This document shows, piece after piece, positions 19,110-31,342 of a DNA stretch of 64,000 nucleotides; positions within the stretch are counted from its first letter, which is position 1, and every line of letters begins with the position of its first letter. Where the stretch lies: NCBI GenBank assembly GCA_030603275.1, contig JAUVYB010000001.1, forward strand, positions 19,832 to 83,831. Reading direction: 5' to 3'. The stretch is from Deltaproteobacteria bacterium. GTDB taxonomy: Bacteria; Chloroflexota; Dehalococcoidia; Dehalococcoidales; BS750m-G39. The notes beneath the pieces were generated by a model. That model was not told where the DNA came from, ran no database searches, and saw nothing but the letters and a program-made list of their open reading frames with translations. Position numbers and translations under genes: made by a program.

Positions 19110-20345
19110 TCAAGGCAATTCTTTACGCTTCCACCCCGTTTCCTTCACGAAAATAAAAGCCACCAGTCCCAGAAGCCCAAAAGCCGCCCAGAGAAAGAAT
19201 GGTAAGGGCGATGCGGGATTACCGGGGTCGGCAAGGCTGTTACCCAGGGGGGGAGAAATAAGCGAACCGACATTGAGAACAGTCTGCACCAGCCCCATGG
19301 CCGTTGCAGCGTAGACTACCCCAATCCCCTTTGTCTCGGTGCTCATAGTCAGACAGACAGCCATAAACCCGTCACGAGCTACGCCAATCAATATCATCAG
19401 AACGCATACCATGGCGTTATCAACCAGCGGCAACAGGGCTACACCCACAATAGTAACTACCAGCACCGGGAAAAGAACCGCTTTTTTCAAACCAATCTTA
19501 GCGGATAACAGAGCCAGCGGGATGGCGCCCAGGGCACTGACCACACTAAAAGCGGCTAATGTGCCGTCAGCACTAGCTGCCGTCCAGCCGATATTACGAA
19601 GATAGGTAGGGAAATAACCAATCAATCCTTGAATACAGGCCGTATAACCTAACAGAGTCAAACCGAGAAGCCAGAGGGATTTGATAGGAAATACGCGTGA
19701 TATCGACTGGCGCAACGGCACACCACTTATAGAAATTGCTGTTCCAATCCCACCATGTTCCCTTACTGTGAAAAGCCACAGCAAGCCGATTATGACTGAT
19801 ATGCCACCGTACAAGAACAACACGTTCTGCCAGCCACCCAGTAACGGCGACAGTATAGTGGCACTAATCAGTGACCCCACGGTAAACCCTAATCCCATAC
19901 CGGCTGACACCGCGCCATTAGCAATCACGAGCCGTCTTCCTGAGAACCAGGTGGCGGTGGTCTTAAAGACACTGCTCGGTATAACCCAAACCGCCAGACC
20001 CATGAAGAAAGTGAACAATACCAAGCTGGGAAAGTCCCCGGCGATGCCTCTCAGGGCACCAGTCAGTCCCGCCAGTAGACAGGCAATACCCATAACACGC
20101 TTGGCCCCGTAGCGGTCAGACAGCAACCCACCGATGAAGACAATAAACAAACCAGCCAAGGCGGGTATACCCCAGATAACACCTATTTCCACCAAACTCA
20201 AGCCAAGGTCCTCTGATATCTCCTTGAAAAGGACCGTCATGCAAATCTGCTGCATGGCAACAGTAAAGGTGAAAGTTAGTGCTGCCAGGGTAAGCACATA
20301 CCACCGATGATTGGGTCTGTTGCTTTGGCTATTAAACATGCTCAC
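19110..20345 (-). CDS. MFS transporter
   Basis: 411 aa with about 12 predicted hydrophobic helices and the motif GGLLSDRYGAKR between TM2 and TM3. Confidence 0.8.
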   Translation of the reverse strand: MSMFNSQSNRPNHRWYVLTLAALTFTFTVAMQQICMTVLFKEISEDLGLSLVEIGVIWGIPALAGLFIVFIGGLLSDRYGAKRVMGIACLLAGLTGALRGIAGDFPSLVLFTFFMGLAVWVIPSSVFKTTATWFSGRRLVIANGAVSAGMGLGFTVGSLISATILSPLLGGWQNVLFLYGGISVIIGLLWLFTVREHGGIGTAISISGVPLRQSISRVFPIKSLWLLGLTLLGYTACIQGLIGYFPTYLRNIGWTAASADGTLAAFSVVSALGAIPLALLSAKIGLKKAVLFPVLVVTIVGVALLPLVDNAMVCVLMILIGVARDGFMAVCLTMSTETKGIGVVYAATAMGLVQTVLNVGSLISPPLGNSLADPGNPASPLPFFLWAAFGLLGLVAFIFVKETGWKRKELP

Positions 20346-20544: not shown

Positions 20545-20802
20545 TTAACCCCAAAACCACAGGGCACCACCCACCACCACCAGAACCAGACCAACAGACA
20601 GAGATATCCAGCCACCTATCTGCCCCGCCCCAATCCTCGGGCGCTGCGGCCAGTGTTCCAGAAATTCCCTGACATCGTGGCGACCGGCAAGAGAACTGTA
20701 ATATCCTTTCTCTTCACCCCTGCCCCAGCAAATCAGGATTATGCCCAGGATGACGAAAATACCACCTACGCCCATAAATATAAAATGATCGCTCAGAGGC
20801 AT
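20545..20802 (-). CDS. Small membrane protein (hypothetical)
   Basis: 85 aa with two hydrophobic helices. It starts 18 nt after the rplL stop, with AAGGGG upstream. Confidence 0.5.
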   Translation of the reverse strand: MPLSDHFIFMGVGGIFVILGIILICWGRGEEKGYYSSLAGRHDVREFLEHWPQRPRIGAGQIGGWISLSVGLVLVVVGGALWFWG

Positions 20803-20820: not shown

Positions 20821-21423
20821 TTATTTAACTTCTACAGTAGCCCCGGCTGCTTCCAGTTTCTGTTTTATGGTAGTTGCTTCTTCCTGATTAATCCCTTCTT
20901 TTACCGTCTGAGGGGCACTCTCAACGAAGTCCTTTGCCTCTTTCAGCCCCAGGGTAGTAACCTCTCTCACTGCCCTGATAACGCTGATTTTATTAGCCCC
21001 GATTTCTTTGAGAACAACGCTGAACTCCGTTTTCTCCTCAGCCGCCGCTGGAGCTTCAGCCGCTGCTGCCGGCGCTGCTACCGCAACCGGAGCGCTAACG
21101 CCGAACTCAGTCTGTAGCGCCTTGACCAGCTCTGATAGCTCAAGCACACTCATCTTCTTTATACTGGTCATTATCGCCTCAACGGCTGCCGAGCTCTTCA
21201 CCTTAGCCTTGGCTTTGGGTTCCTTTGTCTCAGCCTTGGCTTCAGGTTCCTTCACCTTGGCCTCAGCTTTAGGCTCTTTTACCTCAGCTTTGGCTTCAGG
21301 TTCCTTCACCTCGGCCTCAGCTTTAGGCTCTTTTACCTCAGCCTTGACTTCAGGTTCCTTCACCTCGGCCTCAACTTCAGGTTTCTTGGCTGTTTTTTTG
21401 CCCTTGGCTTCCTCTTCTGGCAT
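20821..21423 (-). CDS. rplL: Ribosomal protein bL12 (L7/L12) with a roughly 75-aa repeat-rich N-terminal extension
   Basis: Residues from about 78 to 200 are canonical L7/L12 ([21 protein letters not shown], an Ala/Pro hinge, and a C-terminal domain ending GATVEVK). The ATG at 21423 sits 5 nt after GAGGGAGGA at the end of rplJ. Confidence 0.9.
21200..21390. repeat. Coding tandem repeat, 54-bp unit (27-bp sub-period), about 3 copies
   Basis: Units at 21231-21284, 21285-21338 and 21339 onward differ by only a few bases. They encode KEPEAKAEV-type nonapeptides. Confidence 0.85.
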
Positions 21424-21424
21424 A

Positions 21425-21949
21425 TTATCCTCCCTCTAATTGCTGAATTCTTGCTTGTAACCCAGCTATAAGCCCCATCATTGGGGAAGTAAGCTGGCCC
21501 ACCAGAGCCGAGATAGGACCTTGCACCCCACCCACAACCATGGCCAATAACACCTCTTTCGACGGTAAGGCAGAAAGGGTGATTACCTCCTCCTTGGTAA
21601 GTAGCCTATCAGGTAAAAGGCCTCCCTTGATACTCATGGTGGCTTTTGAGTCCTCAATGTAAGTGGCTAAAGCTTTAGCCGGTTCAGTTATATCGCCATA
21701 GCCAAAAGCAATCGCCACCGGCCCATCAAGGAAACCGAACAGTTCTTCCCTGCCCGATTTCTGGGCGGCAAACCGGGCCAGCGTGTTCTTCACCACCTTA
21801 TACTCAATCCCCGCCTCCCTCAGCCGGCGCCGCAACTGGGTCATCTCGTTAGCTGATTGACCCCGGTAATCGGTCAGAATAGCAACGCTGCACCGAGAAA
21901 ATAGCTCCTGCAGACTATCGATAATCGCTGTTTTCTTTTCCCTGGACAT
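21425..21949 (-). CDS. rplJ: Ribosomal protein uL10
   Basis: 174 aa with typical L10 sequence ([25 protein letters not shown]) immediately upstream of rplL. Confidence 0.95.
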
Positions 21950-21987
21950 TGCCCTTTACCCCCAATTAACACTATAAATATTCACCT

Positions 21988-22024
21988 AAAAAAGCAGGCC
22001 CTTGCGCCTGCCGCACAAGGGCCT
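21988..22024 (-). terminator. Intrinsic terminator or attenuator hairpin between the DUF35 gene and rplJ
   Basis: On the minus strand, AGGCCCTTG (11-nt loop) CAAGGGCCT forms a 9-bp stem followed by GCTTTTTT. It ends about 38 nt upstream of the rplJ ATG. Confidence 0.6.
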
Positions 22025-22127
22025 ATAATTCAAGCCCTTTGTATCCTCGGCAGGCAGTTCATTAAGCCTCAACTGGCACCCGCTGTCTCAGGAAACCTGT
22101 TTTATCCTGTTATTTTATTCTATTTTA

Positions 22128-22616
22128 CTACTTTACCGGCTCAAAAGCAAAAAACACCCTCGGCGCCTCCTCCATCACACCGCCCCTTTTTTCTATTATC
22201 ATCGGCGGTACATCATAGACAGCCAGCTTGACGGTATCGCCTTCTTTAAGCTGCCCCTCTTTGCAGTTAATGACGCGGGAGATAAGCTTGCGCCCGTCCT
22301 CCAGTTCAATACGGGCGTGAATCAGAGGTGACTCAAAGCCGAGAGGGACTCCGGCTAACTCTTCGGTAAACCGAAGCACCTTGCCCTTAGTGGGCAGGTC
22401 AACCCACTCCAGGGAATCGGAATTACACTTCGGGCAGACCACCCGCGGCGGGAAAGACACGGTGCCGCATTTGGTGCACTTGGTGGTGGTAAAGCGGTTC
22501 TCCCTCAGGTTTTCGTAAAACTGGTGAACACGGTTAAACTCTTTAGCCTCGAAAGGATACATATCCAGAGTCGATGGGTATAAACCTTCTAAAATCGGTA
22601 CTCCCGGTACTGGCAT
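22128..22616 (-). CDS. DUF35 OB-fold/zinc-ribbon protein (thiolase partner)
   Basis: 162 aa with the zinc ribbon CTKCGTVSFPPRVVCPKCNS followed by an OB-fold-like region. Confidence 0.8.
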   Translation of the reverse strand: MPVPGVPILEGLYPSTLDMYPFEAKEFNRVHQFYENLRENRFTTTKCTKCGTVSFPPRVVCPKCNSDSLEWVDLPTKGKVLRFTEELAGVPLGFESPLIHARIELEDGRKLISRVINCKEGQLKEGDTVKLAVYDVPPMIIEKRGGVMEEAPRVFFAFEPVK

Positions 22617-22654
22617 AAACTTACCCCCTTATAATCTAGCGTTAATACTCTCTC

Positions 22655-23836
22655 TTAGGGCTCTCTACCGTAGATGAGTATGGTATGCTCAACGTTAAGG
22701 CCGCTCAGGTTATGGGTCAACCCTATCTTGGCGTCCTTCGCCTGATTTATCGCCCTGCCCTGCAACTGGAAGAAAATCTCCATCGCCTGGCGGATGCCGG
22801 TGGCACCAAAAGGATGGCCGCAGGAGAGCAGGCCGCCATCGGTGTTTACCGGAACCTTACCACCGAAATCGTTCTGTCCCGATTCTACAAAAGCACCCCC
22901 CTCCCCCTTCCTGCAGAACCCAAGGTCCTCCATCTCGATAATCTCCGAGATAGTGAAGCAATCGTGGGTCTGGGCAACATCGACATCTTCGGGACTGACC
23001 CGCGCCCTCTCGAAGGCCTTCTTAGCGGCGGTTCTCAGGTGAACCCAGTCGGACAGGTCTTCACCGAGCCAGTTCATCGACATACTGTGAAGAGAAGCCT
23101 GAGCCGTCCCCCGGATATAGACCAGGGGTCTATCGGTAAGCTCTTTGGCCTTATCCTCACTGACCAATATCACGGCGGCACAGCCGTCGGTGATAGGGGT
23201 ACAGTCAAACAGGCCGAGGGGCGGCACCACCGCCCTGGCATTTATCACCTCTTCTATGGTAACCGCTTTCTGGAACTGCGCCTTGGGGTTGTTGGCACCG
23301 TTACGGCGGTTCTTCACCGAGACAGCCGAAAGCTGCTCCTTGGTCGTGCCGTAGCGCTTCATATGATCCTGGGCAGTCATGCTGAAGAATGGGGGCGGCA
23401 GACCCATACCCTGGGCACCATCCCAATCATGGTCGATGGAAGCCATCTCGCTGTAATAGGTTTCCCAGCGCTGCGGCGTATATAGCTTCTCGCCGCCGGA
23501 TACCATCACCACATCGGCCATCCCTGCTTTTATCAGGCCAGTAGCCATGATAATGCCCGAACTACCACCGGCGCAGAGGGTGTCCACCCTGGTGCAGATG
23601 CTAGTCGGCTTGATACCGATGCGCTCGGCGACTACCGGAGCAGCGTTAACCTGGAAGGCGCTCCGTCCGCAGTAGGAAGAAGCAAAGATAAGGCCGTCTA
23701 TGTCATCTTTCTTCAGTGCCGGTACATCGTCAAAACAATCCTTAGCTGCTTCCTGAGCCATGTCTATTATGCTTGCCTCTCTAACCCCCCACCGATCCAT
23801 ACCCGCGCCGACAATACAAACATTTCTATCCGCCAT
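22655..23836 (-). CDS. Thiolase-like protein (SCP-x / lipid-transfer-type thiolase family)
   Basis: 393 aa with a thiolase fold, an active-site Cys context (TLCAGGSSG) and C-terminal GHPFGATG and NLSG motifs. Confidence 0.8.
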   Translation of the reverse strand: MADRNVCIVGAGMDRWGVREASIIDMAQEAAKDCFDDVPALKKDDIDGLIFASSYCGRSAFQVNAAPVVAERIGIKPTSICTRVDTLCAGGSSGIIMATGLIKAGMADVVMVSGGEKLYTPQRWETYYSEMASIDHDWDGAQGMGLPPPFFSMTAQDHMKRYGTTKEQLSAVSVKNRRNGANNPKAQFQKAVTIEEVINARAVVPPLGLFDCTPITDGCAAVILVSEDKAKELTDRPLVYIRGTAQASLHSMSMNWLGEDLSDWVHLRTAAKKAFERARVSPEDVDVAQTHDCFTISEIIEMEDLGFCRKGEGGAFVESGQNDFGGKVPVNTDGGLLSCGHPFGATGIRQAMEIFFQLQGRAINQAKDAKIGLTHNLSGLNVEHTILIYGREP

Positions 23837-23859
23837 GTTAAAACCTCCTTAAATATCGC

Positions 23860-24273
23860 CTAACCCTTTATAAATTCGTAGGCAATCCTGCCCTCAGGCA
23901 GTTTCACCGGGCTGACCGTTAAATTCATGCCGATCGTGATATCCTTCTCCTCAATATCCCGGCTCAATCGGGCCAGGATCTGTATGCCCTCATCAAACTT
24001 AGCCAGAGCCAGAATATAGGGAGCGTCGTTCTCAAAACCGCTGGGACCGTAATTTACCACAGTATAACTTGCGAGCTTACCCTGGCTCTTAACTTCGAAC
24101 CACTCCACATCGCTGGAAAGGCACTTCGGGCAATCCGCCTTGGGTGGAAAGTAGCTACCCCCGCACTTCCGGCATCTGGTGGCCATTACCTTGCCTGCCT
24201 CCAGTTGGGTTATAAAATCAGCCACCTTGGCTTCGGCAGTAAAGCTAACCGTGCCAAAATTCTCAAAGCCCAT
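23860..24273 (-). CDS. DUF35 OB-fold/zinc-ribbon protein (thiolase partner)
   Basis: 137 aa with the zinc ribbon CRKCGGSYFPPKADCPKCLS. Confidence 0.8.
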   Translation of the reverse strand: MGFENFGTVSFTAEAKVADFITQLEAGKVMATRCRKCGGSYFPPKADCPKCLSSDVEWFEVKSQGKLASYTVVNYGPSGFENDAPYILALAKFDEGIQILARLSRDIEEKDITIGMNLTVSPVKLPEGRIAYEFIKG

Positions 24274-24279
24274 TTAAAG

Positions 24280-25431
24280 CTACCTCCTCAAAATGGTTAC
24301 GTTGCCGTATTGCCCGACGCCACCGATATTATGCACCAGGCCTATCTCTGCGTCCTTCACCTGAGCCTCGGTGGCCTCCCCCCGCAGCTGGCGGACAATA
24401 GTCCGAATTTGCGAGCCGCCGGTAGCGCCTATCGGGTGTCCTTTAGATAACAAACCGCCGTCGACATTTACCGGTATCTTGCCATCGGCATAGGTCTCTT
24501 TATTCTCAATCAACCCCACTCCCTCCCCGGGCTTGGCAAAGCCCAGGTCTTCATAAGCCAGAAGCTCGGAAACGGTAAAACAATCGTGAACCTCGGCCAC
24601 ATCAATATCCTGAGGTTTAACACCGGCCATCTTATAAGCCTGCCTAGCAGCCTCCTGAGCACACCGCAGTCCGGTAAGCGATTCCCTGCCGGCCATGGTC
24701 ATGGTATCAGTGGCCGCCCCCAGACCGGCAACCCAGATGGGGGTTTTGCTTATACTCTTGGCAACATCGCCTCTGGCCAGGATAACGCAGGAGGAGCCGT
24801 CGGCATTGGCGCAACAATCAAACTTCTTCAGCGGGCTGGTTATCATCTCCGAGTTCAAAATAGCCTCCAGGCTCAGCTCCTTGCGGTAGTTGGCCTTGGG
24901 ATTGTCCACCCCGTAGTGGGAGTTCTTGACCCGCACCTTGGCTAAGTGCTCCTCGGTAGTCCCGTACCTGGCCATATGAGCCCGGGCGTACATGGCATAG
25001 CCAGCGGGCATGGTTATCCCAAAGGGGGATTCCCAGATTATATCTCCCCCCCGGCCCATCCTCTCGGCAGCGTCACGGGAGGAAAGCTCGGACATCTTCT
25101 GAAAACCTATCACCGCCACCGTCTTGTGAAGCCCCGCCTTTATCAGTGACCAGGCTACTCTTAAACCCGTGCTGCTGGAGGAACAGACCGTCTCCACATA
25201 GAAGGTCGGCTTGGGGGTCAACTCCAGATACTCCGATATTAAGCCCGATGGTGAGCGCTGTTTATCATATTCCGGCGCCGAGCAAACAACAGAGGCATCT
25301 ATATCATTACCGGTGATATCCAGGCCCTCCAGTGCCTCCTTATAAGCCTCAAAACATAACTCCCGGATAGATTCACCGCAGCTACGACTAAAAACGCTCT
25401 GACCAGCACCGATGACAGCAACATCTTCCAT
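24280..25431 (-). CDS. Thiolase-like protein (SCP-x / lipid-transfer-type thiolase family)
   Basis: 383 aa with VCSSSSTG, GHPIGATG and NIGG motifs. It starts 31 nt after the rplA stop, with AAAGGGGA upstream. Confidence 0.8.
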   Translation of the reverse strand: MEDVAVIGAGQSVFSRSCGESIRELCFEAYKEALEGLDITGNDIDASVVCSAPEYDKQRSPSGLISEYLELTPKPTFYVETVCSSSSTGLRVAWSLIKAGLHKTVAVIGFQKMSELSSRDAAERMGRGGDIIWESPFGITMPAGYAMYARAHMARYGTTEEHLAKVRVKNSHYGVDNPKANYRKELSLEAILNSEMITSPLKKFDCCANADGSSCVILARGDVAKSISKTPIWVAGLGAATDTMTMAGRESLTGLRCAQEAARQAYKMAGVKPQDIDVAEVHDCFTVSELLAYEDLGFAKPGEGVGLIENKETYADGKIPVNVDGGLLSKGHPIGATGGSQIRTIVRQLRGEATEAQVKDAEIGLVHNIGGVGQYGNVTILRR

Positions 25432-28837: not shown

Positions 28838-28910
28838 AGCCCACAACCAGATTCGAACTGGTGACCCCGTTCTTACCAAGAACGTGCTCTACCAACTGAG
28901 CTATGTGGGC
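28838..28910 (-). tRNA. tRNA-Thr (anticodon GGU)
   Basis: Hand-folded cloverleaf: acceptor GCCCACA/TGTGGGC, anticodon loop TTGGTAA, T-loop TTCGAAT. CCA is not encoded. Confidence 0.9.
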
Positions 28911-29223
28911 ACCATGCCTGAATACATTTTAAGTCAAGATGGATATAGAGTCAACAAAATATAGTGTTTCTACTTTAGAACGTCATATAAAAGTTAAGTT
29001 GATAAAGTAACCATTGATTTTAAGGCAATGCACGGGTGAAAGTCAAGCAGGAGGCAGGGAAGATGGGAAGTCTAGCTGAAAAAGTATATATGGATTTGAT
29101 GGCAAGAGGCAAGGATATTAAGACTGCTAGGCGTTGGCGTAATTGGACTATGAAGTTTGAGGTTTGCTGTGAGAGTAAGAGCAAATATGACAGGGACGAT
29201 ATCATAAGGTATTTAAGCCACGG

Positions 29224-29307
29224 TGGAGGGGGTAGGATTCGAACCTACGTAGCCCTTTGGGCGGCAGATTTACAGTCTGCTCCGATTAACCACTCCGGCA
29301 CCCCTCC
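29224..29307 (-). tRNA. tRNA-Tyr (anticodon GUA), long variable arm
   Basis: Acceptor GGAGGGG/CCCCTCC and anticodon arm GCAGACTGTAAATCTGC. Overall very similar to E. coli tRNA-Tyr. Confidence 0.9.
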
Positions 29308-29327
29308 CCACATCACCAATAAATCCC

Positions 29328-29400
29328 AGCCCGAGAGGGGATTCGAACCCACTAACCTACCGATTACAAGTCGGTTGCGCTTCCATTGCGCCACTCGGGC
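29328..29400 (-). tRNA. tRNA-Thr (anticodon UGU)
   Basis: Acceptor GCCCGAG/CTCGGGC and anticodon loop CTTGTAA. One mismatch in the hand-folded T-stem. Confidence 0.8.
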
Positions 29401-29560: not shown

Positions 29561-29858
29561 AAACTGAATATTGAATAAAGGCTGAGAACGAGACTAGTAG
29601 GCTCCAAGCGGGGCTAAAGAGAGCCGGGTAAGGTGTAAGCCGGCGCCAGCGCAGGGGTTGAATGGACTCGGGAGCCGCAAACCGAAAGGGATTCCCAAGT
29701 AGGCTTTGACGGAGGGGCACCGTTAGCTGAGCCCAGAGTATCGCTTTAAATATTAAGGCTGTACCCGAAAAGAGATGGTTGCCATTTTGGTAATCAATTA
29801 GGGTGGCACCGCGAAGGATTAACCTTTCGCCCCTATAGGGGTGGGAGGTTATTTTTTT
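29561..29858 (+). promoter_or_regulatory. T-box leader RNA, probable Trp (UGG) specifier
   Basis: T-box sequence AATTAGGGTGGCACCGCG lies at about 29796-29813. Also present: AGAGAG (AG-bay-like), an AGTA motif, and GAA-TGG-A with TGG at 29663-29665. A terminator follows directly. Confidence 0.8.
29823..29858 (+). terminator. T-box terminator hairpin
   Basis: CCTTTCGCCCC-TATA-GGGGTGGGAGG forms an 11-bp stem including 3 G-U pairs, followed by TTATTTTTTT. The RBS AAAGGAG and the GTG start of trpE follow. Confidence 0.75.
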
Positions 29859-29881: not shown

Positions 29882-31342
29882 GTGTACCATCCAACACTGG
29901 AAGAATTTAAAGCACTGGGAAAGAGAGGAAATCTGGTGCCCGTCTACCGCGAGGTTGCGGCGGGTTCGGATACACCGGTTTCCGCCTTCTTGAAGGTAAA
30001 ACGCGGCGGTTATTCCTTCCTTCTGGAGAGCGTGGAAGGCGGCAAACAGGCGGCTCACTACAGCTTTATCGGCACCGAGCCCTACCAGGTGCTCAGCACC
30101 AGAGAGGGAGATAAAACCGACCCCCTTAACCTCATCGCCGAAGAAATGAACAAGCACAGGCTGGTACCGGCAAGCGGACTGCCTGATTTCTGCGGCGGCG
30201 CCGTCGGCTACCTTGCCTACGAAACGATACGGCGCCTGGAAGAACTTCCCTCACCAGACTCTGACCCCCTGGCTCTGCCCGAATCGGTGTTCATGTTCGT
30301 TGATACTATGCTCATCTTCGACCACGCTGCTAATAAAATCAAAATCGCAAGCCACGCCCGCCCCGATGGCGACGCCGACAGCGCCTACCAGGCAGCAATA
30401 GAGAAGATAGAGGAATTAGTAAACAGACTCGCCCAACCCCTCAAAAACCCCCGGCACCTGATAGCAGACACACCAGCACAACCTGCTGAAATCTCTTCCA
30501 ACCTCACTAGAGAAGAATTTGAAACCAATGTCGAGAAGGCAAGGCAATATATAACCGAGGGCGAAACCATCCAGATTGTGCTCTCCCAGCGCCTGAGCCG
30601 GCGCACCAACGCCCATCCCTTTGAAATCTACCGGGCCCTGCGGAGCATCAACCCATCACCCTATATGTTCTTCCTGGACTTAAAGGACTTCCAGCTCATC
30701 GGCTCATCCCCCGAAATCCTGGTAAGAGCGGTAAACGGCACGGCGACCACCCGCCCCCTAGCGGGGACAAGGCCGAGGGGGAAGACACCCCCCGAGGATG
30801 CCCGGCTGGAAAAAGAGCTCCGCAATGACGAGAAGGAACGAGCCGAGCACATAATGCTGGTAGACCTGGGGCGCAACGACATCGGGCGGGTGAGCCTGCC
30901 GGGAACGGTCAAGGTCAGCGAACTTATGGATGTGGAACGCTACTCTCACGTCATGCACCTGGTCACCAATGTGGAAGGCAAGCTGCGCCCCGAACTCACC
31001 CCCTTTGACGCCCTGCGCGCCTGCTTTCCCGCCGGCACCGTCTCCGGTGCGCCCAAAATCCGTGCCATGGAGGCTATCGCCGAGCTTGAGCCGGACAAGA
31101 GAGGCCCCTACGCCGGCTGCGTGGGCTACTTCAGCTTCTCCGGCAGTATGGATACCGCCATAACCATAAGGACTATTATCCTGACCGAGGGAACAGCCCA
31201 TGTCCAGGCTGGCGCCGGCATTGTCTATGACAGCGTGCCGGCGCGGGAATATGAAGAAACCATGAACAAGGCCCGCGCCCTGTTAAAAGCCATCGAGCAG
31301 GCCGAGGCTACGGAGATGACCTATGCTGCTGCTGATAGATAA
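29882..31342 (+). CDS. trpE: Anthranilate synthase component I
   Basis: 486 aa, chorismate-binding family (LLESVEGG, GAGIVYDSVP). GTG start. Confidence 0.95.
   Translation: MYHPTLEEFKALGKRGNLVPVYREVAAGSDTPVSAFLKVKRGGYSFLLESVEGGKQAAHYSFIGTEPYQVLSTREGDKTDPLNLIAEEMNKHRLVPASGLPDFCGGAVGYLAYETIRRLEELPSPDSDPLALPESVFMFVDTMLIFDHAANKIKIASHARPDGDADSAYQAAIEKIEELVNRLAQPLKNPRHLIADTPAQPAEISSNLTREEFETNVEKARQYITEGETIQIVLSQRLSRRTNAHPFEIYRALRSINPSPYMFFLDLKDFQLIGSSPEILVRAVNGTATTRPLAGTRPRGKTPPEDARLEKELRNDEKERAEHIMLVDLGRNDIGRVSLPGTVKVSELMDVERYSHVMHLVTNVEGKLRPELTPFDALRACFPAGTVSGAPKIRAMEAIAELEPDKRGPYAGCVGYFSFSGSMDTAITIRTIILTEGTAHVQAGAGIVYDSVPAREYEETMNKARALLKAIEQAEATEMTYAAADR

Follow-up and report, generated by a model that had tools for sequence, protein, structure and literature searches.

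The only rplL gene in a 64,000-nucleotide stretch of contig JAUVYB010000001.1 (assembly GCA_030603275.1, positions 19,832 to 83,831; this whole stretch is called the window below) encodes a ribosomal stalk protein bL12 (L7/L12) that carries a long additional tail in front of its usual domains. The tail is rich in lysine, glutamate, proline and alanine and is built of tandem nonapeptides. The host is an uncultured Dehalococcoidales (Chloroflexota) bacterium, and the tail is a lineage trait of a Dehalococcoidales clade, not a one-off. With good confidence we describe the protein as a normal bL12, which has its two N-terminal helices, its Ala/Pro hinge and its C-terminal alpha/beta factor-binding domain, standing behind a translated tail of 78 residues.

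The identity of the protein was established at the level of domains, solved structures and gene order. The L12 dimerisation domain (Pfam PF16320) matches amino acids (aa) 82-124 with E = 1.4e-15 and 57.2 bits against a cutoff of 25, the L12 C-terminal domain (PF00542) matches aa 134-200 over its full profile, 1-67, with E = 1.9e-29, and aa 1-81 gave zero matches in the Pfam search. The bL12 chains in the PDB (E. coli, T. maritima and others, including 8rdw_D with 7.4e-33 and 1dd3_A with 2.3e-31) align from query residue 81-82 through the C-terminus. The rplJ stop codon and the rplL ATG are separated by 1 nt. Because the genes follow the order L10 leader, rplJ, rplL, with tuf, nusG, rplK and rplA further upstream, this is the single, ordinary housekeeping rplL of the organism. 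The 3′ end of the L10 leader forms a terminator-like 13-bp GC-rich hairpin (22025-21995) followed by a T-run, which is consistent with attenuation-type autoregulation by L10(L12)n.

The length of the protein is out of the common range. A bL12 usually has about 120-130 aa, with helix 1 only a few residues from the N-terminus; here the product runs to 200 aa, with helix 1 beginning at residue 79. The usual length is a typical and not a defining property of bL12, and the protein stays a bL12, as a variant. It shows each testable defining feature of bL12, and the N-terminal tail is the sole difference. An earlier note, made from the letters of this DNA alone, had already described a 200-aa open reading frame (ORF) directly after rplJ with a normal bL12 in its C-terminal two-thirds and a Lys/Glu/Pro/Ala extension of about seven nonapeptides; the domain, structure and operon data agree with this description, and seven units are counted in the sequence as assembled.

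Sequence evidence of three independent kinds, namely conservation among homologs, selection on the DNA and the architecture of the start site, indicates that the extension is translated, as the earlier note had also supposed. The selection test was done with the DNA of 19 relatives (tails of 51-130 codons) from genome and metagenome collections. The ratio of nonsynonymous to synonymous differences (pN/pS) in the extension was 0.17 in frame against about 0.78 in both shifted sense frames, and the core gave 0.13. The extension has 0 stop codons in frame, while the two shifted frames hold 71 and 204. The shifted frames were run through the same protein-guided alignment procedure and hence control for alignment bias. 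In ungapped pairs of equal length the third codon positions hold most of the differences (for example, 9, 7 and 27 at the three positions for the window against its relative L083), and the length differences between relatives are all in-frame. The tail is under purifying selection as a protein.

The start site tells the same story. A Shine-Dalgarno (SD) sequence precedes an ATG just after the rplJ stop in 68 of 68 distinct extension-bearing loci. The same arrangement, '...CAATTGGAGGGAGnATAAn' immediately followed by ATG, is also used by clade members that have a mere 3-8 aa stub at the N-terminus, and the tail was therefore inserted downstream of the ancestral start. Near the canonical N-terminus (from -6 to +2 codons) a start codon of any kind, ATG, GTG or TTG, was found in only 12 of these 68 loci, and no internal start is conserved. 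In the window, GTG codons stand in frame at positions 21, 39, 57 and 75 and internal Met codons at 85 and 91; the position equivalent to GTG-75 is GTG in only 8 of the 68 loci. On two details the earlier note needs correction. It had put the ATG 5 nt behind the SD sequence, while GAGGGAGGA ends 4 nt ahead of it. It had also considered an internal start at Met only, which would truncate the first helix; Met85 does lie inside helix 1, but the in-frame GTG codons are present besides Met85 and Met91.

The seven nonapeptides follow the pattern P-[EK]-[AV]-[EK]-A-[EK]-[VT]-K-[ES], or more simply P-x-x-x-A-x-x-K-E, and the final unit is PKAKAKVKS. If the tail is made of such units, then we can ask: How stable is their number among close relatives? 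Where the core is at least 93% identical to that of the window, the tails of the relatives measure 42-96 aa, and they differ in length from the tail in the window most often by multiples of 9 residues. Five close relatives form a series of 4, 5, 6, 7 and 8 units (51, 60, 69, 78 and 87 aa), which keeps its first and its last unit throughout. The internal duplications are independent: units 2 and 4 of the window differ by 2 nt and units 3 and 5 by 1 nt, L082 shows no difference within the corresponding pairs, and L081 shows none between units 6 and 7. These data support the view that units of 27 bp and 54 bp were recently, and still are, being gained and lost in frame, and they make length polymorphism at the population level likely. 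The near-perfect 54-bp tandem repeat, the recent expansion and the probable polymorphism had all been anticipated in the earlier note and were borne out here.

The distribution of the tail was traced among homologs clustered at the 90% identity level. At least 120 clusters were obtained, with proteins of 166-233 aa in which both bL12 domains are always present and the KEPEAKAEV-type units vary in number; they share a conserved N-terminus beginning MP[QE], with tails of 42-108 aa. The closest genomes are metagenome-assembled genomes (MAGs) labelled Dehalococcoidales or Dehalococcoidia and, in a few cases, Deltaproteobacteria. The last label is probably wrong, because these MAGs nest among the Dehalococcoidales and Dehalococcoidia ones. 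Comparison with related genomes and metagenome bins, which the earlier note had proposed, thus gave an extension that is clade-wide and varies in copy number. Its view that the tail is unusual is correct in relation to model bacteria, but within its own Dehalococcoidales clade such a tail is normal.

A neighbour-joining tree built from L10 together with the core of bL12 contains one large clade with a constant 174-aa L10 and coupled stop and start codons, and within this clade the bL12 tails span from the 3-8 aa stub (as the only extension in L034, L039, L053 and L160) to 130 aa. The subclade of the window carries KEPEAKAE-type units, with tails of 24-130 aa in the loci (L088 and L091 have a 253-aa protein). 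MAGs labelled Dehalococcoidaceae carry EEPKAEEPAAEEP-type tails, and EEVKAEE-, EQQPEV- or Thr/Gln-rich versions are found in other subclades. In basal Dehalococcoidia and in the outgroups bL12 is canonical, with 125-130 aa and without a tail. A short acidic start, M-x-[EQDN]-E, is the only part shared across subclades, and the remainder is free in sequence and length. The distribution of charge is nevertheless common to tails of otherwise unrelated sequence: in 76 tails the median charge was -4 in the N-terminal half, +3 in the C-terminal half and +3 in the last 15 residues. This conserved polarity suggests that the basic stretch formed by these last 15 residues, next to the N-terminal domain, may contact rRNA or acidic surfaces of the stalk.

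Outside this clade, sporadic short charged tails of about 20-30 aa occur in Krumholzibacteriia and Omnitrophota MAGs. A search with the core only, against 1.84 billion representatives at 50% identity, gave several more clusters in which a charged tail at the N-terminus is genuine (P0139, P0149, P0160, P0162, P0171, P0256 and others); many apparent 'extensions' in it were mis-called starts or L10-L12 fusions.

Among the 78 residues of the extension are 21 K, 21 E, 14 A, 8 P and 8 V, and the net charge is 0. Its fraction of charged residues is 0.54, its net charge per residue is 0, and its kappa of 0.12 is no different from that of shuffled sequences. The tail is a charge-balanced, well-mixed strong polyampholyte, and polyampholytes of such a class are expected, by the usual classification, to be expanded, hydrated coils. 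AlphaFold2, run with an alignment of 64 sequences, gave a predicted local distance difference test score (pLDDT) below 50 at residues 7-9 and 13-69 and zero secondary structure ahead of residue 79. It placed helices at 79-89 and 93-107, a hinge with pLDDT below 50 at 113-128 and a C-terminal domain with pLDDT 86-89. The tail is predicted to be intrinsically disordered, in line with the guess of the earlier note. A single alpha-helix of the ER/K type was rejected because of the proline at each ninth residue and the zero helix content in AlphaFold. No comparable K/E/P/A-rich run was found in any other ORF of the 64-kb window. A genome-wide habit of adding such tails was rejected as well, since in the window rplL only has one and L1, L11, L10, NusG and EF-Tu are of ordinary length.

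How many tails would one ribosome carry? Bacterial bL12 binds helix alpha8 of L10 as dimers, with 4-6 copies on the 50S subunit. The alignment of the 174-aa L10 with T. maritima L10 (1zav_A) is free of gaps and includes the C-terminal helix, residues 107-166 corresponding to 114-173 of that chain. T. maritima L10 binds three L12 dimers (PMC1635324). Because the L10 of the window is Thermotoga-like through its C-terminal helix, six copies of bL12 (three dimers) per ribosome are the more likely stoichiometry and are probably present. Six copies would therefore add about 470 disordered residues, or about 50 kDa, to each ribosome.

In model bacteria the N-terminus of bL12 is solvent-accessible, and its N-acetylation in E. 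coli gives L7; for this reason we expect the tail to point outwards. The tails would project from the bundle formed by L10 helix alpha8 and the L12 N-terminal domains without blocking dimerisation, and six of them would form a hydrated charged brush around the stalk spine. Such a brush could act sterically and through solubility, as 'entropic bristles' that keep the stalk and the ribosome soluble and spaced. It could also concentrate charged ligands (translation GTPases, tRNA complexes) weakly and electrostatically near the GTPase centre, and its basic proximal segment may touch rRNA or acidic stalk surfaces. A steric and electrostatic role seems the most likely one; a brush or recruitment function as such is put forward tentatively, as something possible rather than probable. 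The same holds for the suggestions of the earlier note that the tail could alter the assembly of the stalk or recruit other factors. A bolder version is rather improbable on present data. Here the tails would form a second, lineage-specific layer of the stalk, six polyampholyte chains per ribosome, which pool charged ligands like P-stalk tails do, or space and protect the ribosomes of slow-growing, energy-limited subsurface Dehalococcoidales, and repeat gain and loss would make tail length an evolvable 'dial' on translation.

Four other explanations were weighed, and the main rival concerns function. It holds that the tail is translated and retained but has no specific role: a low-complexity expansion, produced by replication slippage or unequal recombination, would be tolerated at a permissive exposed terminus and selected only for being soluble and non-toxic. 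We think this unlikely, but it has to be taken seriously. It would account for tails that measure anything between a stub of 3-8 aa and 130 aa, look unrelated between subclades, often gain or lose units among near-identical cores, are reduced to stubs in some members of the same clade and have a kappa like that of shuffled sequences. It accounts less well for a tail kept across a large clade of at least 120 clusters, for a pN/pS near the core value, and for an acidic-distal and basic-proximal polarity preserved in unrelated tails; some cost pressure would also be expected against about 60% of extra length on a highly expressed, multi-copy protein. It is improbable that the tail is a pro-peptide or an assembly aid removed after synthesis, which would leave a mature bL12 of normal size, in the manner of bL27, whose N-terminal extension is cleaved by the Prp protease in Firmicutes. 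The junction before helix 1 shows fair conservation, with small residues after a run of basic ones (K-[KSR]-S-A-A-[VI]), yet these residues are also part of the start of helix 1 in canonical bL12. A pro-peptide varying from 24 to 130 aa would be unexpected, and the locus showed neither a protease gene, among its annotated neighbours, nor a recognisable cleavage motif.

The remaining two explanations would make the tail or its length an artefact. That the number of repeats, or the whole repeat block, results from short-read metagenome assembly is very improbable: in its favour the two 54-bp units are 96% identical, but the same architecture, always in frame, recurs in more than 100 independent assemblies (NCBI, JGI, ENA and Logan). 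The identical 200-aa protein (P0001 in the public protein collection) lies on a 204,761-bp NCBI contig, relatives with 93% and 91% identity are equally long, the units hold diagnostic differences, and the duplicated block of 108 bp is shorter than a typical read of 150 nt. Hardly credible, finally, is a start at GTG-75, Met85 or Met91, which would turn the 225 nt upstream into a repetitive spacer that is not translated and would make the 200-aa ORF an artefact of gene calling. GTG-75 would yield a protein of canonical length, 126 aa, and repetitive GC-rich DNA often keeps long ORFs open, but the difference in pN/pS between frames, the absence of in-frame stops in the 19 relatives, the in-frame length differences, the position of Met85 and the rarity of near-canonical starts beside a constant distal SD and ATG led us to reject these internal starts. 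The following points nevertheless weigh against a translated, functional tail on the mature stalk. The pN/pS of repeats depends on the alignment, for which the shifted-frame control is a partial remedy, and the huge variation of the tail in length and sequence equally fits a weak or merely compositional constraint. The seven-unit count is the count as assembled, the six-copy figure derives from sequence alignment, the compatibility of the tail with L10 binding is assumed from model organisms, and its presence on mature ribosomes is read from the gene, so that later removal would be possible.

Table 1. Coordinates of the rplL region in the window, with the source or character of each feature.
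Feature	Position	Strand	Basis or remark
rplL coding sequence, bL12 with N-terminal extension	20821..21423	-	200 aa, ATG start, stop codon 20821-20823
N-terminal extension coding region, aa 1-78	21190..21423	-	start sequence, then 7 nonapeptides
Tandem repeat array, 27-bp period x 7.1 copies	21196..21387	-	Tandem Repeats Finder
Nested 54-bp period x 3.4 copies, 89% match	21196-21381	-	Tandem Repeats Finder
Youngest duplication, two 54-bp units (21231-21284 and 21285-21338)	21231..21338	-	2/54 positions differ
In-frame GTG, codon 75	21199-21201	-	sole alternative start for canonical-length bL12 (126 aa)
bL12 N-terminal dimerisation and L10-binding helices, aa 79-107	21103..21189	-	AlphaFold and Pfam PF16320
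Ala/Pro-rich flexible hinge, aa 108-133	21025..21102	-	low pLDDT at 113-128, PDB alignments
bL12 C-terminal factor-binding domain, aa 134-200	20824..21024	-	Pfam PF00542, AlphaFold
rplJ (uL10), 174 aa	21425..21949	-	Pfam PF00466; aligns to T. maritima L10; stop TAA 21425-21427
SD sequence GAGGGAGGA, inside the last rplJ codons (LEGG)	21428..21436	-	ends 4 nt before rplL ATG
L10 leader RNA RF00557, upstream of rplJ-rplL	21982..22110	-	61.6 bits vs gathering score 44

Several observations were made on the surroundings of the gene. On the opposite strand, an antisense ORF of 143 aa (21008-21439, plus strand), rich in Ala, Ser, Thr and Gly, mirrors the repeat and the hinge of rplL and is probably a by-product of low-complexity coding sequence. 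Downstream, an ORF for a small membrane protein of 85 aa (20545-20802, minus strand) begins 18 nt past the rplL stop with no terminator between them; it has a weak match to DUF3098 (E = 0.004). Of 161 related loci, 103 have a homolog of it immediately behind rplL; among tailed genes the share is 74 of 91, and where the tail has at most 10 aa it is 11 of 40. A functional link between this ORF and the tail was rejected, because the ORF follows the clade, is missing from 17 tailed genes and stands beside 11 genes with tails of at most 10 aa. Further downstream rplL is followed by a transporter of the major facilitator superfamily (19110-20345), not by rpoB and rpoC. The usual rplKA-rplJL cluster is split by a four-gene block (22128-25431, minus strand) between rplA and the L10 leader. 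It encodes two thiolase-like proteins, each with a ChsH2/DUF35 partner composed of a zinc ribbon and an oligonucleotide/oligosaccharide-binding (OB) fold, and it is kept in the close relatives L001, L002, L088, L098 and L103. A tRNA-Thr/Tyr/Thr cluster (28838-29400, minus strand) adjoins tuf, and a T-box leader (29575-29837, plus strand, 119.5 bits) lies ahead of the ORF at 29882-31342.

Other unusual forms of bL12 appeared among the homologs. In the 50%-identity library the top matches of the bL12 core designated P0125-P0170 are proteins of 230-1066 aa with 3-8 tandem L12 C-terminal domains; in the two sequences that were read, P0125 (593 aa, 7 copies) and P0129 (322 aa, 4 copies), no N-terminal domain is seen. 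Two apparent L10-L12 fusions, P0233 and P0271, come from the same library. The loci L033 and L157, from a MAG labelled Dehalococcoides mccartyi BE2012_46_32, have a purely basic tail before the canonical MTPEVII start, either 30 aa from the first Met (MSPEPVEMQKRQRKVKAKAESSPAKAEVTK, with a strong SD before it) or 23 aa from the second Met. The protein collection holds only the long form of this bL12, and no protein of a named isolate was found among its homologs.

Comparison with known systems places the tail more exactly. Canonical bL12 (E. coli, 121 aa; T. maritima, 128 aa; PDB 1dd3, 1rqu and 1zav) shares with the protein of the window both Pfam domains, the hinge and the place in the operon. 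It lacks the 78 extra disordered residues, and the solved bacterial chains match from their residue 3-6. The organellar proteins (bL12m, 198 aa, 6gaw_CL and 6vlz_TA; chloroplast bL12c) are similar in length and also have their extra part N-terminal to the dimerisation domain. However, their sequence similarity is limited to the bL12 core, and the host here is a bacterium without an import pathway. The extra part of the organellar proteins includes targeting peptides that are cleaved off, and it does not consist of K/E/P/A tandem repeats. In TonB, the (EP)n(KP)n region likewise consists of proline-punctuated acidic and basic low-complexity repeats from short tandem DNA repeats, with segregated acidic and basic blocks. 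It has no homology with the tail described here and belongs to another cellular context, and in the tail the charges are well mixed (kappa 0.12).

Other charged or flexible extensions are known around the ribosomal stalk. The flexible charged tails of the archaeal and eukaryotic P-stalk proteins (aP1, P1/P2) build a 'factor pool' (PMC7768734). Like the tail of the window they are multi-copy, long, flexible, highly charged and disordered and extend from the stalk. In contrast, they belong to a non-homologous family and sit at the C-terminus, where a conserved factor-binding motif closes them, while the tail of the window sits at the opposite, anchoring end of a protein whose C-terminal domain already supplies factor binding. 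A factor-recruiting tail of the P-stalk type would have a conserved terminal peptide for binding translational GTPases; among the tails no such motif was seen beyond the short M-x-[EQ]-E-E start. The flexible N-terminal motif of eukaryotic uL11 at the stalk base is a proposed, experimentally supported modulator of stalk function (PMC9122527). It is also a lineage-specific unstructured N-terminal addition to a protein of the stalk region, but the protein is another one and the motif is a short conserved MPPKFDP instead of a variable repeat; the tail, for its part, is known from sequence. In bacteria of the candidate phyla radiation (CPR), bL12 is among the enlarged ribosomal proteins, and the N-terminal lengths depend on start-codon prediction (PMC9297842). 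This is the same general phenomenon, but that paper describes no repeat tail at the N-terminus of bL12, and for the window the start and the translation of the tail were examined by sequence tests.

Among solved structures, no bacterial bL12 with such a tail was found. The chain 8yeq_A, a bL12 of 171 aa, has 45 extra N-terminal residues, which may be a tag. The literature searched, including searches with peptide strings, contained no description of an N-terminal extension of bL12 in Dehalococcoidia or Chloroflexi. The variant is real and widespread in its lineage, it is apparently undescribed, and it falls within the known lineage-specific disordered extensions of ribosomal proteins.

To our knowledge, bL12 is the only multi-copy ribosomal protein. 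It is the main recruiter of translational GTPases and is normally regarded as compact, with about 120-130 aa and with its extreme N-terminus as the interface of the dimer and of L10. Trimming of the rplL start codon in the annotation of Dehalococcoidia MAGs would be wrong. The anchoring end of bL12 tolerates large appendages, which is relevant to stalk engineering and tagging, and the relatives provide a natural series of tail lengths for probing disordered polyampholytes on a molecular machine. Throughout a clade at the level of an order, whose members are abundant in sediments and the subsurface, 24-130 charged, disordered residues are added at the anchoring end of this protein, and if six copies are present per ribosome, this would be among the largest lineage-specific additions to the bacterial stalk.

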